Shown piece after piece: positions 9,512 to 59,695 of a stretch of DNA of 64,000 nt (positions are counted from its first letter, which is position 1; each line of letters opens with the position of its first letter). The stretch lies in the IMG/VR virus record IMGVR_UViG_3300027833_000001, positions 32,001 through 96,000 of that record. One strand, given 5' to 3'. The notes beneath the pieces are model-generated. The model made no database searches and was not told where the DNA came from. It was given only the letters and a program-made list of their open reading frames with translations. Made by a program: the position numbers and the translations under genes. This DNA is from a virus.

Positions 9512-9732
9512 TGTTGGTGAATAGATTATTTGCTTTGCGAGTTATCTCTTGTGATGACCCTAACAAATGGTATGCAGATAAAGTAGGACAAATAGTTCCT
9601 TACATAGCAGACCAATCTGAGTCTGAGTGGAAAAGTTTACAAGATGATGGTGTTGCACCAGGACATCGATTTACAAATTTCATCACAAAGAAAGATGCCG
9701 TTCTGGAGGAACTGTACGATGTATTTGACTAA
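9511..9732 (+). CDS. hypothetical protein
   Basis: TAATG-coupled 73-aa ORF. Confidence 0.6.
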   Translation: MLVNRLFALRVISCDDPNKWYADKVGQIVPYIADQSESEWKSLQDDGVAPGHRFTNFITKKDAVLEELYDVFD

Positions 9733-10369
9733 ACTGGCAATAGCAACCACCGTGGTTGTTGCAAGTCTTGGCATTGCTGATTCTGTTGCAATTGGACAAG
9801 ATGATGATTTACGCCTCGTGCTTGAGCAACCTTTTTACAGGGCTGAGATAGGTCAGATCAGTGAGATTAGAGGATGGGCATTACATCCAACTGAACAAAT
9901 TGATACAATAGAAATCTATATTGATAATCAGTTCTACTCTATTGTTCCTGTCGGTGGACAGCGAGGTGATGTTTACAACGCATATCCCGATGCAGTAAGT
10001 TCTAGATATTCTGGTTATGCACAAACAGTAAACTTCAAGACTTTACCGCCTGGGTTTCATACCATGCAAGTTGTAGCATATACTGTTGAAGGTAGCTATA
10101 ACGCTATAACGTCCGAGTTCTGTGTGGATGGATTTACTGGTGAGTTTATCAGTGATTCTTCAAGTATAAATTTACAAACAGTAGCGCGATTACACACGGA
10201 TAAAAATGCTCTGATATTAGAAGGTATGGAAGTTGACGGATACCTATATAATGTCGAGTTGGTGTGGAACAAAGCCACGCAAGGATTTATCATTGAGCAA
10301 ACTACTCCTTACGAATATATCAATGGCGATTATTCTAAGCATTGTCGAGTATGCGCTCCAGATATGTAA
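9719..10369 (+). CDS. secreted protein with Ig-like domain
   Basis: Signal peptide MYLTKLAIATTVVVASLG; IRGWAL..IEIYIDN..RGDV..AYP..SGY..LPPGFHTMQVVA. Confidence 0.65.
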   Translation: MYLTKLAIATTVVVASLGIADSVAIGQDDDLRLVLEQPFYRAEIGQISEIRGWALHPTEQIDTIEIYIDNQFYSIVPVGGQRGDVYNAYPDAVSSRYSGYAQTVNFKTLPPGFHTMQVVAYTVEGSYNAITSEFCVDGFTGEFISDSSSINLQTVARLHTDKNALILEGMEVDGYLYNVELVWNKATQGFIIEQTTPYEYINGDYSKHCRVCAPDM

Positions 10370-10397: not shown

Positions 10398-10426
10398 TTG
10401 ACTTTTACAACTGTTTAGTTTATAAT
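10398..10426 (+). promoter_or_regulatory. sigma70-type promoter
   Basis: TTGACT-N17-TATAAT. Confidence 0.75.
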
Positions 10427-10451: not shown

Positions 10452-10520
10452 ATGACGAAAACAATAGTAATCGAACTTACGGTAGCTATAGCGTGTTTAA
10501 TAATTCTCGTTACACTATAA
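10452..10520 (+). CDS. 22-aa single-pass hydrophobic peptide (not in ORF track)
   Basis: MTKTIVIELTVAIACLIILVTL*, with GGGAGG SD at 10441 and its own promoter. Confidence 0.6.
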   Translation: MTKTIVIELTVAIACLIILVTL

Positions 10521-10657: not shown

Positions 10658-10665
10658 TATAAATA
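10658..10665 (+). promoter_or_regulatory. T4-type late promoter
   Basis: TATAAATA. Confidence 0.7.
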
Positions 10666-10670
10666 GTATT

Positions 10671-10876
10671 AGAACAACCCGGTTGTAGTCCTGAGTAAAG
10701 ACTCCACCCTGTACTAAGTTAAACTGCTCCGTCAATAGAGCCAAATGCCATTGACGTTAAGCCATAGACTCCTGAGTAAGAGTATAAAACTTCTCCGGCT
10801 GTCACCTCTCTCAAAACACCGGCAGTCGTTAAACGGAGGGTCCTGGGCATGACGCTTAAACTGCCCAACTTTTTAT
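10671..10876 (+). ncRNA. putative structured RNA of three related H-type pseudoknot units
   Basis: Three copies of stem-CTGRGYAW-stem...AAACTKCYC with covariation, intervening hairpins, a late promoter upstream and a U-run downstream. Confidence 0.6.
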
Positions 10877-10894
10877 AATGATCAAGTGGAGAAT

Positions 10895-11269
10895 ATGATG
10901 TCAGATGAAACACCCAAACCAGAAGTAGAAGAAAGTGCTGAGTATGAAAACTTTCTAGGACAGAAAGCGACTGAGTATGAAGCTCCTTCATTATCTGATG
11001 TCCTTGGAGTGGATCAAGAAGACTTACGTGGTAGTGTAAACCCAGTCAAAGATCATTGGGTAGGTATGCCAGAATACGAACATAAAAAAGATGCTGGTCC
11101 ATTTAAATCTATCAATGTACATTTTCGCAACGAAGAAGATTATCAAGCATTTGCTGAACTGCTAGGTACTGGTTTAACAAAGAGAACAAAAAGCATTTGG
11201 TATCCAAAACAATCTATTACAGCAAATTCATTAATGCGTTGGATGCAGGAAGATGATGCCGATGCGTAG
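10895..11269 (+). CDS. partner protein of the TAGT-like glycosyltransferase
   Basis: WVGMPEY..INVHFRNEEDY..F..L....T..TKSIWYP; overlaps the GT gene. Confidence 0.7.
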   Translation: MMSDETPKPEVEESAEYENFLGQKATEYEAPSLSDVLGVDQEDLRGSVNPVKDHWVGMPEYEHKKDAGPFKSINVHFRNEEDYQAFAELLGTGLTKRTKSIWYPKQSITANSLMRWMQEDDADA

Positions 11270-12197
11270 TAATCAATATCCAATTTACATAGTATCTAAG
11301 GGTAGACATGAATCCATGTTTACTTCTAGAAGTCTTGATAAGATGAATACGCAACATTACATTGCTATTGAACCACAAGACTATGACAACTATGTACAAG
11401 CGTTCGTAGAGTTCGGTATTACTACTGCTACTCTTTTAGTTCTACCCTTTAGCAATCATGGTGATGGACCTGGTCGCGCACGTAATTGGTGTTGGGATCA
11501 TTCGATGCAAAATGGCTTTGATGCTCATTGGGTACTTGATGATAACATACAATCATTCTATAGATTCAATGATAACATACGAATACGTGTGGGCTCAAGT
11601 GTATTCTTTAGAGTAATGGAGGATTTCTTTGACCGATACGATAATCTTTATATTGCTGGTCCTCAGTACCGCTTTTTTATTGCACCCAATCAGAGTTATC
11701 CGCCTTTTGTGGCGAACACTCGTATTTACTCTTGCCTTCTTATTAGGAATGATTGTTCTCACAGATGGCGAGGTAGATACAACGAAGATACGGACATCTG
11801 CTTGCGAGTTCTTAAGGACGGAGACTGCACAGTCCAATTTAACGCCTTCTTACAGGGCAAAGTTGCAACACAAACTGTAAAGGGGGGAAATTCCACTGAG
11901 TTCTATCATAAGGAGGGTATGGAAGAAGGGTTATCTGAAGAACAAGTTGCACAGATGACAAAGGAGAAAGGTGAAAGATATAACATCGATGGCACCATAA
12001 ATAAATCACAGATGCTGGAGGATATGCACCCAGATGTAGCCAGAGTAGTTTGGCGATACGGAAGGTGGCATCACTATGTTGATTATTCATCTTTTAAAAA
12101 GAATAAATTAATCTTGAAAGAAGGAGAAACATTGCCCAATGTGAAAGTAGATAACTATGGCATGAAGCTAGTTACCCTTGAAGAGAAAATAACTTAA
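11253..12197 (+). CDS. TAGT/GREB1-like GT-A glycosyltransferase (putative DNA base hypermodification)
   Basis: YPIYIVSKGR, ARNWCWDHS, HWVLDDNI (DD), NTRIYSC, WRGRYNEDTD, KGGN, RWHHYVDY. Confidence 0.75.
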   Translation: MMPMRSNQYPIYIVSKGRHESMFTSRSLDKMNTQHYIAIEPQDYDNYVQAFVEFGITTATLLVLPFSNHGDGPGRARNWCWDHSMQNGFDAHWVLDDNIQSFYRFNDNIRIRVGSSVFFRVMEDFFDRYDNLYIAGPQYRFFIAPNQSYPPFVANTRIYSCLLIRNDCSHRWRGRYNEDTDICLRVLKDGDCTVQFNAFLQGKVATQTVKGGNSTEFYHKEGMEEGLSEEQVAQMTKEKGERYNIDGTINKSQMLEDMHPDVARVVWRYGRWHHYVDYSSFKKNKLILKEGETLPNVKVDNYGMKLVTLEEKIT

Positions 12198-39987: not shown

Positions 39988-40650
39988 ATGAAAATATTTA
40001 ATCACTTAGATTTACCAGAACTTCCTAGTCTTTCCAGAAAGAATATTGATGGAAAGCGTATGTATTGTACCGATAGTGGTGATAGATATCCGTCTATCAC
40101 TACTGTCCTCTCCTGTCGTGGCAAGAAAGGTTTGTACGAATGGAGACAGCGTGTTGGATCAGTAGAAGCTGATAAAGTCAGTAAGAAAGCATCTACACGT
40201 GGTACCAAAATTCACAAGATATGTGAAGACTATATCAACAATGAACCTCTACCAGAACTGACCCTAGTCGAACAAGAGACTTGGAACACGTTTAGACCTG
40301 TTGTAGAGCGTATCGATAACATCCATCATGTAGAACCATTCATGTTCAGTAACCATCTTGGTATTGCTGGTCAGTGTGATTGTATTGCAGAGTTTGATGG
40401 TAAACTGTCTATTATAGATTTCAAGACCTCACGTAGACTCAAATCTCACAAAATGATATCAAGTTACTTTGCACAGTGTGCCGCGTATGCAATCATGTAC
40501 GAAGAGTTGACTGGCATTGCAATCAATAGAACTGTTATATTAATGGCAGTTGATGATGAGCAACCACAGATATTCATTGAGAAGCGTGATAATTATGTCG
40601 ATTATTTACTAGAAAGTAAACGTATGTTTGAAGCTGGTGAAATTGATTAA
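39988..40650 (+). CDS. PD-(D/E)xK exonuclease (T4-like marine phage core)
   Basis: YPSITTVL, EWRQRVG, RGTKIH, AGQCDCIAEFDG..IIDFKTS, QCAAYA. Confidence 0.9.
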   Translation: MKIFNHLDLPELPSLSRKNIDGKRMYCTDSGDRYPSITTVLSCRGKKGLYEWRQRVGSVEADKVSKKASTRGTKIHKICEDYINNEPLPELTLVEQETWNTFRPVVERIDNIHHVEPFMFSNHLGIAGQCDCIAEFDGKLSIIDFKTSRRLKSHKMISSYFAQCAAYAIMYEELTGIAINRTVILMAVDDEQPQIFIEKRDNYVDYLLESKRMFEAGEID

Positions 40651-40659
40651 TATGAGACT

Positions 40660-40667
40660 ACTAAATA
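40660..40667 (+). promoter_or_regulatory. late-type promoter upstream of tmRNA
   Basis: ACTAAATA. Confidence 0.5.
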
Positions 40668-40672
40668 GAACT

Positions 40673-40930
40673 ACTAGATTTGATGAAGCGTATATTAGGA
40701 AGTTTGGACGCGGGTGCAACTCCCGCCGCCTCCACCATAAGCACATTTTGACGAGTGTTCTTATGTTGGGGGCGAGTTAGGTTCGACAGGCAACTGAAGG
40801 TACGTGGAGAATCGGTGCGGAAGCTACCGTAAACGCAACAAAACCTATAAATGCCAACGATGAGGTATTTGCACTAGCCGCATAAGCTAGTCGGGGTATG
40901 GGATCCACCTTGTAATCCAACGGTCCCACT
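40673..40930 (+). ncRNA. ssrA: circularly permuted (two-piece) tmRNA; tag ANDEVFALAA
   Basis: T-arm and CGCCTCC-A-CCA (ends 40737) precede the 5' GGGGGCG (40768); G3.U70 pair; 30-nt intervening hairpin; pk1; resume codon at 40853, GCC AAC GAT GAG GTA TTT GCA CTA GCC GCA TAA. Confidence 0.92.
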
Positions 40931-40955
40931 TTTAAAGGCAAGAAGGATAAACTAT

Positions 40956-56380: not shown

Positions 56381-57025
56381 ATGGCAGATTGTCAAATAGG
56401 AGCATTAGGAGAATTAGCTGACAAGCTAGACGAAGGCTTCTCCGTTATTCAGGACAAACTTCAAGCTGTTCAGAATAAGATTAATGCTTTTCCTGGAATG
56501 ATTAATGCCGAGTTGGCTGCAACTTATGCAGAAGTGCAGTTGGCTTTGCATACGCAGTTCCCACAAATCACAAGTTTAGCAGATATAAAGAACGCATTAC
56601 CAGAAGAAATAAAAAATATTGTTGGTCTTGCTCAGGATGCACTTGCATTTGCAACTGAAGTAGAAAGACTTAAAGAAAAATATGAAGATGCTGATCTGGA
56701 CTTATTAAAAGATCCACAAAATATAACCAATCTCTTGAGAGACATACAGGGAGATTTAAACAGACTATGTGATCTAGTGCCTACATATGTAGAAGTTACC
56801 GATCCAGAAACTGGTGAGACTAAAAGTGAATTACGTGGTAGAGGCAATTCAGAGATAGAACTTAGGTCTAGACCAAACATTGAAGCGAAGTCATTGTTTA
56901 CAAAAGAAGGCAGAAAACTAGCAGTTAAGCAAGTCACGGAGAGTTTGAAAGGTATCCGAGCAACATATGTTGACGAAGGTACAGGAAATATCTCTAATGA
57001 GGGTGAAAACCGCTATGGATGGTAA
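56381..57025 (+). CDS. hypothetical helical virion-module protein
   Basis: 214 aa between gp5 and gp25. Confidence 0.7.
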   Translation: MADCQIGALGELADKLDEGFSVIQDKLQAVQNKINAFPGMINAELAATYAEVQLALHTQFPQITSLADIKNALPEEIKNIVGLAQDALAFATEVERLKEKYEDADLDLLKDPQNITNLLRDIQGDLNRLCDLVPTYVEVTDPETGETKSELRGRGNSEIELRSRPNIEAKSLFTKEGRKLAVKQVTESLKGIRATYVDEGTGNISNEGENRYGW

Positions 57026-57781: not shown

Positions 57782-59695
57782 ATGGCAATCAAAAACGTCA
57801 CAAATTTAGACTTTGAAGAAGTTAAAGCAAATCTAAAGTCACACTTACAGGCTCAGGATGAATTTTCTGATTATAATTTCGATGCATCTGGCTTGTCCGT
57901 GTTAGTTGATCTTCTTGCATACAATACACATTACAATGCGGTAATGGCACATTTGGTTGCTAATGAATCATTCATTGATTCCGCTGTTAAAAGAAATTCC
58001 GTTGTTTCAATTGCAAAGACTATGGGATACACTCCTAGATCAGCAAGGTCTGCAAGAGCAACCATCGATCTTACTATTACTCCCGATTCATCTTATTCTT
58101 CATCTACTCTATTCATTTCAAGATTAGCGACATTTACCGCTTCTGTAAATGGCAAATCTTATTCTTTCTTGCCTGCATCTGATACTACAATTACTAAAAC
58201 TTTTAATGCCGCTGGTGTAGGGCAGTTTATTGCAACAGGGCTTGAAATAGTTGAAGGTAGACTAACATCAACATCTGAAGTGATATCTACCAACAACAGA
58301 CAAGGTCCTGTGTTGTTACCAAACGATAACGTAGATACTACCACTATTAAAGTTACAGTCAAAGAGAATACAAATAGCAGTGTTACAACTGCATACTCTT
58401 TTTCTGATAACATTCTAGACGTAACGAGTACATCAAAAGTATTCTATATCGAAGAATCTACTTCTGGAAAATACGAGATTTATTTCGGTGATGGAGTTTT
58501 AGGTAAGAAGTTAGACGTAGGAAATATTGTTCAAGTAGAGTATGTTGTTTGTGCTGGTACCGCTCCAAATGGTGCTAGAGCGTTTAAAAATTCAGTAAAC
58601 TTTACGGGCGCGGCTGAGACTGTAACTGGTACGGTTTCATCTAATGCTGGTGGTGGTGCTGTTAGAGAAGATGTTGAGAGCATTCGATTTACTGCTCCAA
58701 GATTTAATGCTGTTAAAAACAGAATCGTAACAAAGACAGATTACGAAACAGTTATTAAAGCGGCTAATCCAAATATTAAATCCGTTACTGCTTGGGGTGG
58801 TGAAGATAACGATCCTCCAATCTACGGAAGAGTATTCGTATCTTTACAACCTGAAAGTGGATTTACTATAACACAATCAGAAAAAGCGACATTATTAAAT
58901 GACGTTATTTCTCTAAAACAACCTATTACAATGTCAACTCAGTTTGTTGATCCAGAATTTACTCATGTTGGATTAAACATTTCGGCAACGTATGATCCAA
59001 AATTAACAACACAAACTCCATCTGCATTACAAGCACTGATTACAGCGGAAGTAGAAACTTACTTTAACGGTACATTGAATGCATTGAAGAAAAACTTTTA
59101 CTATTCTTTTATTACAAATAGAATTAATAATGTTTCTAAAGCTATTATAGGAAACAATATTGAGTTGCGCCTTCAAAAACGATTAGTTCCTGCATTGAAT
59201 GTTGCAACTAGATATGAACCTAAGTTCAACAATAAGATTCTTCCAAACTCAATTAGAACAAACTATTTTAATGTTGTTATTAATGGCATAACATATTCAA
59301 AAGTTAGTATAACTGATACTCCAGACGCAGATGTGATAGCACCAGTGTACTCTGGTAAAGGTATACTTAAACTTACTGATGTACAATCATCAACTGTTTT
59401 ATTAGAATCACTAGGAACAATCGACTATGATACTGGTGCTCTTGATATACCAGCAATGTCAGTCGCTTCAGTTTCTGGTACAGTAACAGATATCAGAGTA
59501 AGCGCAACTCCTCACGAAGGGTCAAAAAACATATCTACTGACGTTTTGATTAGAACATCTGAAGAACAAAAGTTTGCGATTACTCCTTTACCTGCTAGAA
59601 ATGTAATTTTAACACTGGATTCAAGTGCATCCGATACGATAAATAATATCAGAGCCGGAGTCAGTGTGACTATGGTACCAAGAGTAGCTGATTAA
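57782..59695 (+). CDS. gp6: baseplate wedge subunit
   Basis: LDFEEVKANLK, DYNFDASGLSVLVDLLAYNTHY, YFGDGVLGK, WGGEDNDPPIYG. Confidence 0.95.
   Translation: MAIKNVTNLDFEEVKANLKSHLQAQDEFSDYNFDASGLSVLVDLLAYNTHYNAVMAHLVANESFIDSAVKRNSVVSIAKTMGYTPRSARSARATIDLTITPDSSYSSSTLFISRLATFTASVNGKSYSFLPASDTTITKTFNAAGVGQFIATGLEIVEGRLTSTSEVISTNNRQGPVLLPNDNVDTTTIKVTVKENTNSSVTTAYSFSDNILDVTSTSKVFYIEESTSGKYEIYFGDGVLGKKLDVGNIVQVEYVVCAGTAPNGARAFKNSVNFTGAAETVTGTVSSNAGGGAVREDVESIRFTAPRFNAVKNRIVTKTDYETVIKAANPNIKSVTAWGGEDNDPPIYGRVFVSLQPESGFTITQSEKATLLNDVISLKQPITMSTQFVDPEFTHVGLNISATYDPKLTTQTPSALQALITAEVETYFNGTLNALKKNFYYSFITNRINNVSKAIIGNNIELRLQKRLVPALNVATRYEPKFNNKILPNSIRTNYFNVVINGITYSKVSITDTPDADVIAPVYSGKGILKLTDVQSSTVLLESLGTIDYDTGALDIPAMSVASVSGTVTDIRVSATPHEGSKNISTDVLIRTSEEQKFAITPLPARNVILTLDSSASDTINNIRAGVSVTMVPRVAD

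Follow-up and report, generated by a model that had tools for sequence, protein, structure and literature searches.

The RNA element described here lies in a phage genome of 165 kb from IMG/VR that is complete and has terminal repeats; bases 32001-96000 of this genome were analysed (a stretch of 64,000 nt, hereafter the window). Its major capsid gene is of T4 type (Pfam Gp23, E 5e-140), and the bearer of the element is a marine T4-like phage; a phage-encoded permuted (two-piece) tmRNA is also found at window positions 40629-40934 (Rfam beta_tmRNA 118 bits, tmRNA_permuted 121 bits). The element, an array of three pseudoknot units (PK1 to PK3), occupies a 525-nt gap between an ORF of unknown function (9644-10369) and an ORF encoding a 124-aa protein, in which a sigma-70-type promoter, a 22-codon hydrophobic ORF, the sequence TATAAATA and the array follow one another (Table 1). 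An early transcript from the sigma-70-type promoter would continue across the array. The 22-codon ORF, kept in the relatives L004 and L005 (identical over the aligned stretch) but not in L006, may encode a small membrane peptide. Downstream of the array, the 124-aa gene overlaps a gene for a TET-associated glycosyltransferase (TAGT). The 124-aa protein has no match in Pfam, PHROG, PADLOC or PDB, and its AlphaFold model is poor (pLDDT 57). Its relatives, collected by a profile scan of IMG/VR, form a large phage-only family of at least 518 loci with the motifs W-x-x-MPE[FY], FRNEEDY and KTKSIWYP.

Table 1. Features of the array locus, in window coordinates (S1, stem 1; S2, stem 2; SD, Shine-Dalgarno).
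Feature	Position	Strand	Description
Sigma-70-type promoter	10398..10426	+	TTGACT-17-TATAAT, 11/12 match; kept in close relatives
22-aa hydrophobic-peptide ORF	10452..10520	+	SD GGGAGG; 5' of the array, on the predicted early transcript
T4-type late promoter core	10658..10665	+	TATAAATA; invariant in six distinct homologs
PK1, diverged unit	10687..10729	+	AGUC / CU GAGUA AA / GACU ... AAAC UGCUC; S1 10687-10690 with 10700-10703, S2 10693-10697 with 10725-10729
Hairpin H1	10730..10756	+	7-bp stem CGUCAAU/AUUGACG; -8.4 kcal/mol, z -3.4
PK2, diverged unit	10768..10795	+	ACUC / CU GAGUA A / GAGU AUAAAAC UUCUC; S1 10768-10771 with 10780-10783, S2 10774-10778 with 10791-10795
Hairpin H2	10796..10828	+	8-bp stem and 17-nt CU-rich loop ACCUCUCUCAAAACACC; covariation in homologs
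PK3, canonical unit	10840..10866	+	GUC / CU GGGCA U / GAC GCUUAAAC UGCCC; S1 10840-10842 with 10851-10853, S2 10845-10849 with 10862-10866
U5 run	10870..10874	+	3' of PK3, with 3 nt (AAC) between; U-rich tract there in all homologs
Gene of the 124-aa unknown-function protein	10895..11269	+	SD GGAG at 10888-10891; downstream of the array
TET-associated glycosyltransferase (TAGT)	11253..12197	+	PF20691, E 3e-44; phrog_842; operon shared with the 124-aa gene

Sequence and homolog comparison together delineate a non-coding RNA of ~195 nt with the order PK1-H1-PK2-H2-PK3. The units follow a common plan, with a stem 1 of 3-4 bp, a loop of CU+RRGYA and a tail of AAAC+UGCYC: in each of them a CU loop 1 is followed by five loop bases that pair 3' of AAAC to form stem 2, by 1-2 junction bases and by an A-rich loop 3, and all three carry the conserved unpaired nucleotides and the A-U pair at the inner end of stem 2. 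PK1 has a long loop 3 of 21 nt that terminates in AAAC. PK2 has one U-U mismatch in stem 2, and both of its stems are compensated in relatives, stem 1 changing from ACUC/GAGU to AGAC/GUCU and CC/GG, and stem 2 from GAGUA/UUCUC to AAGUA/UGCUU and GAGCA/UGCUC. PK3 is directly preceded by a GGAGG that is invariant among homologs, and it ends 28 nt before the start of the 124-aa ORF. An earlier note on this DNA had placed three pseudoknot units at these coordinates; its strings match, the units fold as H-type pseudoknots, and both stems covary in the 80 units described below and in the array homologs. Its broader reading, a non-coding RNA built from three covarying pseudoknot units with hairpins between them, is likewise confirmed by homolog comparison, although two points escaped it, the sequence conservation of PK3 as a motif that is almost universal and the match of TATAAATA to the T4-type late promoter of the phage. 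Tandem repeat analysis with TRF finds none in the array, and the word common to the units is only 10 nt long (TCCTGAGTAA); by this comparison the three units are related by motif and not by recent duplication. In three lineages (L178-L180), loop 3 of PK3 has CGGUCAU, making AUGACCGGUCAU a perfect palindrome able to compete with stem 1, and an alternative fold of PK3 is possible there.

Both spacers form a hairpin in every homolog, beginning at the same CCG right after the knot, with stems that covary or, as in H1, differ in sequence. H1 stands as the earlier note had drawn it. For H2, a hairpin is present, but the proposed register CCGG-UGU/ACA-CCGG is not the covarying one: the supported stem pairs 10796-10803 with 10821-10828 (CGGCUGUC/GGCAGUCG), is replaced in relatives by CGGUUGCC/GGCAAUCG and CGGUUAGC/GCUAACCG, and contains three pairs with two-sided changes in the whole-array homolog alignment. 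A hairpin loop containing CUCUCAA is kept by every homolog, in either H2 or H1; as a general companion of the knot family the motif was rejected, since it accompanies only 3 of 165 knots. The H2 loop ACCUCUCUC and the stem part CUGUCAC have a counterpart at ~146.6 kb of the genome (L262:195-255), where a similar hairpin has a 15-bp stem and a loop of CU repeats. Either of these CU-rich loops could base-pair to ribosome-binding sites of the GGAG type, among them the invariant GGAGG that precedes PK3.

The fold is supported by compensatory change at two scales. Across 80 aligned units, 96.4% of cells are paired, 7 of 9 pairs show two-sided changes and both stems covary, a result matched by none of 500 shuffles, and slid controls on the same units pair only 30-42%. 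Over the whole array, six distinct homologs keep 85.5% of cells paired with 10 pairs changed on both sides, compared with 26-46% for slid partners. The search pattern put no constraint on the base opposite G6 (position 26), and that base is C or U in 134 of 135 units; an optional fourth stem-1 pair is present in 83 of the 135, against an expectation of 55+/-5; and the junction nucleotide is variable (T63, A39, C30, G3). Stem 1 is found as GUC/GAC, GAC/GUC, CUC/GAG and AUC/GAU, and stem 2 as GAGUA/UGCUC, GAGCA/UGCUC, GGAUA/UGUCC, AAGCA/UGCUU, GGGUA/UACCU and CGGCA/UGUCG. Invariant features are C-U in loop 1, the C-G pair that closes stem 1, the innermost A-U pair of stem 2 and AAAC in loop 3, as seen in a collection gathered with patterns that fix the core and therefore overstating sequence conservation.

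A covariance model that includes the array units scores PK3 at 39.6 bits, PK2 at 25.4 bits and PK1 at 23.4 bits, and it finds no copies beyond these three in the window or in the 165-kb genome. The model built without this clade recovers PK3 at 39.8 bits (E 1e-7) and PK1 at 14 bits (E 0.15, penalised by the 21-nt loop 3), and does not find PK2, so that the membership of PK1 and PK2 is drawn from their architecture and from covariation among relatives. On these grounds, PK3 is a canonical member, and PK1 and PK2 are diverged members, of one pseudoknot family. The nested minimum-free-energy fold of the region is no better than that of shuffles (z 0.05), as expected from a program that cannot draw pseudoknots. 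A scan with a loose descriptor is unspecific when used alone, giving 0-16 matches per shuffled genome. Two weak knot-like candidates elsewhere in the window, at 56575-56641 on the minus strand (covariance-model E 0.24, with a 40-nt insertion) and at 59348-59377 on the plus strand (one loose-descriptor match), are not convincing.

The array is kept, in the same unit order, in all 11 close-clade loci fetched (3 from IMG/VR and 8 from metagenomes), which represent six distinct sequences and were aligned over the whole element; the three IMG/VR relatives keep all three units with compensatory changes. Around 77 relatives of the 124-aa gene at ~40-50% identity no array is present, and the single unit found is not adjacent to the gene, arguing that the array belongs to the phage clade and not to the gene. 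BLAST against GenBank phages gives no match to the whole leader. The sequence TATAAATA has 34 copies in the genome, 27 of them outside long ORFs and 21 with an ORF start at most 60 nt downstream, a placement that fits a T4 late promoter. Its other sites lie mostly 5-40 nt before ORFs; the site at the array lies ~230 nt before the ORF, with the array filling the gap. In number alone, TATAAATA shows no excess in the window (9 versus 7.5); support for the promoter comes from placement and invariance. We infer that TATAAATA is used as a late promoter, in which case the late transcript is predicted to start at ~10671-10673, with PK1 ~15 nt in.

Members of the family are H-type pseudoknots of 25-45 nt, with a stem 1 of 3-4 bp, a CU loop 1, a stem 2 of 5 bp, a single variable junction nucleotide and a loop 3 ending in WAAAC; the family core reads GUCCUGGGCA-N-GAC-N3-AAACUGCC. 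The PK3 core, with 22 fixed bases, is matched exactly in 38 IMG/VR contigs of very different G+C, and a 21-base version of the core in at least 120 bacterial contigs, compared with chance estimates, by our own arithmetic, of ~0.05 and ~3, respectively. The phyla among the bacterial matches listed include Omnitrophota, Desulfobacterota, Chloroflexota, Planctomycetota, Saccharibacteria, Bacillota and others; bacterial genomes with the knot carry 1-4 copies, and of 101 genomes from one order, 11 contain it. Short BLAST searches reveal compensated variants in named phages, namely cyanophage S-RIM4, Rhizobium phage RHph_Y65, Microbacterium phage Count, Synechococcus phage S-EIVl and a microvirus, where all copies fall in unannotated gaps. 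On an unrelated G+C-rich phage contig (L034:8466-8560), two units flank a hairpin (PK-hairpin-PK), indicating that the modular layout recurs beyond the array clade.

The earlier note could assign the element to no named family, and Rfam agrees. Rfam 15, searched at the gathering threshold and at E 10 for the array and up to E 1 for eight other loci, gives no family match beyond a chance hit to Proteo-phage-1 RNA (RF03044). This is the only model touching the array (14.4 bits, E 8.1 over PK2-H2), and we take the hit to be chance: its score falls well short of the gathering score (42), the alignment skips the two internal hairpins of the model, and four homologs give no such hit. No description or sequence of the knot family was found in the open literature that we searched. 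As judged from these sequence searches, the knot family is widespread and uncatalogued.

Single units are found between cistrons, at operon ends and beside tRNA genes. In phages they generally lie 5-12 nt 3' of a stop codon and 19-30 nt 5' of the next start. Synechococcus phage S-EIVl has seven copies, all on the gene strand, five of the seven 6-12 nt after a stop and six of the seven 22-30 nt before a start. One knot copy sits between two tRNA genes, and in the microvirus a knot followed by U6 closes the last gene. Single units are flanked by functionally unrelated genes, among them those for capsid, protease, endolysin and SSB, and this speaks against a switch specific to one gene.

What all of these contexts share is a small, stable, autonomous fold, set right beside ribosome footprints but outside them, or at RNA boundaries. 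For this reason we favour, at about an even chance of being right, a reading in which self-folding knot modules would serve as roadblocks or insulators; in this phage their stacking would make either a structured late leader or a discrete late RNA. The conserved nucleotides of the loops probably dock in the grooves of both stems and form base triples, by analogy with frameshifting and preQ1-type knots, which would yield a small, self-folding, mechanically tough knot that needs no ligand. The free junction base and the invariant loops, with no conserved ligand-reading base, are the pattern expected for groove docking from what is known of small frameshifting knots. Between ribosome footprints, knots of this kind would remain folded, and they would halt processive RNases and prevent interference between neighbouring RNA segments. 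The nuclease-blocking element suggested in the earlier note is compatible with such a roadblock, as a putative function. Other points weigh against it: conservation of sequence across phyla should not be needed by a pure roadblock, though the collection is pattern-biased, and the knot between tRNA genes, if it blocked exonucleases, would hinder 3' trimming of the upstream tRNA.

The sites at operon ends also bear on a transcription-level signal, in which the knot, with or without a U-tract, would terminate or pause RNA polymerase or shield untranslated RNA from Rho. Of all instances, 16-20% have a U-run after the knot, versus 3-6% in the background, the microvirus operon end and PK3 among them, and copies lie in untranslated tRNA arrays and long leaders, all of which would suit such a signal. 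However, about 80% of copies have no U-run, for which reason the U-run was rejected as a general knot feature; most copies are internal to operons in which the genes that follow lack a separate promoter; and stem 2 closes a loop of ~15 nt, making a poor intrinsic terminator. A scan for intrinsic terminators on the plus strand at the array found none, with the U5 run beginning 3 nt after PK3. We regard a transcription-level role as improbable.

At the locus itself, under the favoured roadblock reading, the array immediately downstream of the late promoter would form a structured 5' leader of ~230 nt for the operon of the 124-aa and TAGT genes, where it would probably protect the operon message or yield a stable capped RNA fragment carrying the CU-loop hairpin. 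A separate explanation, which we hold to be unlikely, is that the array is its own gene for a discrete late small RNA, with the end knots as caps and the CU-rich loop or the knots acting in trans, perhaps through base pairing to GA-rich ribosome-binding sites or through titration of a knot-recognising host factor. In three of the six lineages (L178, L179 and L180), promoters flank the array: TTGACA-17-TATAAT overlaps TATAAATA just before PK1, and an extra sigma-70 promoter lies between PK3 and the gene, an arrangement that a discrete RNA gene fits better than a leader. A discrete RNA would also agree with the U-rich tract after PK3 in six of six homologs, with the CUCUCAA hairpin loop in every homolog and the second hairpin with a ACCUCUCUC-like loop in the genome, with the PK-hairpin-PK layout on the unrelated contig, and with the independence of the array from the downstream gene family. 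Yet the window and two other lineages have no promoter between PK3 and the gene, which must there be transcribed through the array; the U-tract is short, with AAC between it and the knot; a trans target or host factor is hypothetical; and CUCUCAA is seldom found with the knot.

In bacteria, the knot is linked to a micro-ORF of ~16-30 codons with the consensus R-[YFW]-M-[LIV]-[RP]-[PR]-V-A-H-C-x-[ED]-G-C (L045-L164, e.g. L105:5785-5871), which occurs in six or more phyla. Among 117 unique bacterial flanks, 77 have the knot exactly 8 nt after the last conserved codon; the micro-ORF stops shortly ahead of the knot or within it. That the ORF is coding is shown by its codon-position entropies (0.62, 0.60 and 1.55). 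The peptide has no Pfam or NCBIfam match. Its A|HCxxGC segment resembles the cleaved N-terminal nickel hook (HCxxPC) of NiSOD, and by this analogy the product may be a metal-binding mini-peptide. Genes for Rrf2 regulators often come next after the micro-ORF, and redox and metal-handling genes are found nearby, among them those for an ArsP-type permease, a thioredoxin-reductase-like protein and a Cu-ATPase. In Chloroflexota (L052, L054, L079, L120, L123, L124, L145 and L149), the micro-ORF is followed by knot doublets 2-8 nt apart, one copy of which is often diverged yet compensated.

The 8-nt register, together with the stop that often falls inside the knot, points to interplay with the ribosome rather than passive capping. 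A ribosome-directed element would meet the mRNA entry channel and pause the ribosome, couple or uncouple cistrons, or dock the 30S subunit 5' of the Shine-Dalgarno sequence. The fixed bacterial spacing in 77 unique flanks, the distances from phage stops and starts, the 28 nt between PK3 and its start, and an architecture like that of frameshift-stimulating knots all speak for such a role. Against it, no slippery heptamer lies upstream, copies occur between tRNA genes and after terminators, where ribosomes do not arrive, PK1 and PK2 are far from any ORF end or start, and tight spacing is to be expected anyhow in compact phage genomes. On this balance we consider a ribosome-directed function unlikely. 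The bacterial fixed register and the extra promoters nevertheless keep the ribosome-directed and the discrete-late-RNA explanations alive beside the roadblock. A bolder view, to which we attach a rather small chance, would have a core machine common to bacteria of many phyla, such as the ribosome entry channel or a conserved RNase, read the knot as its universal signal for recognition or stopping; the array would then be a late RNA with three knots and a CU loop that acts as a multivalent decoy or regulator of that machine instead of a passive leader, and bacteria would couple the knot in fixed register to the His-Cys micro-ORF. We know of no complementarity between the knot and conserved 16S rRNA segments. 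Mimicry of an anticodon loop or codon (loop C-U-GGG with CCC) was considered and dropped, because stem 2 has 5 bp, the sizes misfit and there is no link to tRNA enzymes.

Comparison with known pseudoknots sharpens these distinctions. The -1 frameshift knots of luteoviruses and enamoviruses, typified by that of BWYV (28 nt), have a 2-nt loop 1 starting with C, one extruded junction nucleotide and an A-rich loop 3 that forms minor-groove triples, and they lie a few nucleotides 3' of a defined codon. The present knot is similarly compact and shares the 2-nt loop 1 starting with C, the single junction nucleotide, the A-rich loop 3 and a position shortly 3' of a defined codon, but it differs in having its stem lengths swapped (3+5 bp) and in occurring in DNA phages and bacteria, in untranslated places as well. 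Neither upstream of the units nor upstream of the bacterial and phage copies inspected is there an X_XXY_YYZ site as needed for a -1 frameshift stimulator; there is no overlapping frame, and no ORF ends at the array.

The preQ1-I aptamer is likewise a minimal H-type pseudoknot with a short stem 1, a 2-nt loop 1 and an A-rich loop 3 near ...AAAC, often 5' of a ribosome-binding site. The knot is of similar size and has the same order of elements, and both its frequent position just 5' of a ribosome-binding site and the existence of tandem copies would accord with a preQ1-I-type ligand-sensing riboswitch in triplicate. We nonetheless judge a riboswitch very improbable. RF00522 and other riboswitch models have no match (array up to E 10, eight other loci up to E 1). 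The ligand loop is reduced to one variable nucleotide, the sole one at the junction, and stem 2, with 5 G-C-rich base pairs, should form without ligand. The neighbouring genes are unrelated in function to one another and to queuosine, and copies lie by tRNA genes and at operon ends.

The earlier note drew an analogy to type III antitoxins, under which the array would be a ToxI/CptI-like antitoxin or a phage decoy of one. ToxI repeats are near-identical and abutting, are cut and bound by the toxin, and stand ahead of a ToxN-family gene. The likeness lies in tandem pseudoknot units transcribed 5' of a small gene of unknown function, but the array units share a motif only (a 10-nt word, with no repeat detected by TRF), are separated by hairpins and have no toxin partner. 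Among six neighbouring proteins, Pfam and PADLOC detect no ToxN, CptN, TenpN, AbiE-like or other defence family, the downstream gene family is mostly without an array, and single units occur toxin-free in hundreds of contexts. The antitoxin proposal is thus largely refuted, and little credence is left to it.

Among phage RNAs, the knot of T2/T4 gene 32 is a single, larger, 5'-proximal leader pseudoknot that nucleates gp32 autoregulation (PMC3014915). The array likewise places knots 5'-proximally in the leader of a T4-type phage, but its three small units are of a family that is not gene-specific, and in this comparison by description no similarity was seen. Structured RNA end-caps, such as viral exoribonuclease-resistant RNAs and the evopreQ1 knots of engineered guide RNAs, are compact, sometimes tandem, and serve to stop exonucleases and stabilise the RNA beside them, as we infer for the knot. 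The rings of flaviviral xrRNAs have no sequence or fold homology to the knot, whose nuclease resistance is putative.

The fold described here, 25 nt in length, is nearly letter-identical in cyanobacterial, rhizobial and actinobacterial phages and those of marine heterotrophs, as well as in a microvirus and in bacteria that range from Omnitrophota to Chloroflexota. The present locus is the first ordered array of three such knots with a late promoter of its own, and it provides the most clearly defined substrate for tests of knot function; the fixed-register micro-ORF of bacteria offers a second, independent handle on the mechanism. If the knot serves nucleases or ribosomes as a generic, portable stop sign, this would account for the way cistrons are kept independent in compact phage operons, and the knot would be a natural minimal stabiliser part for synthetic biology.
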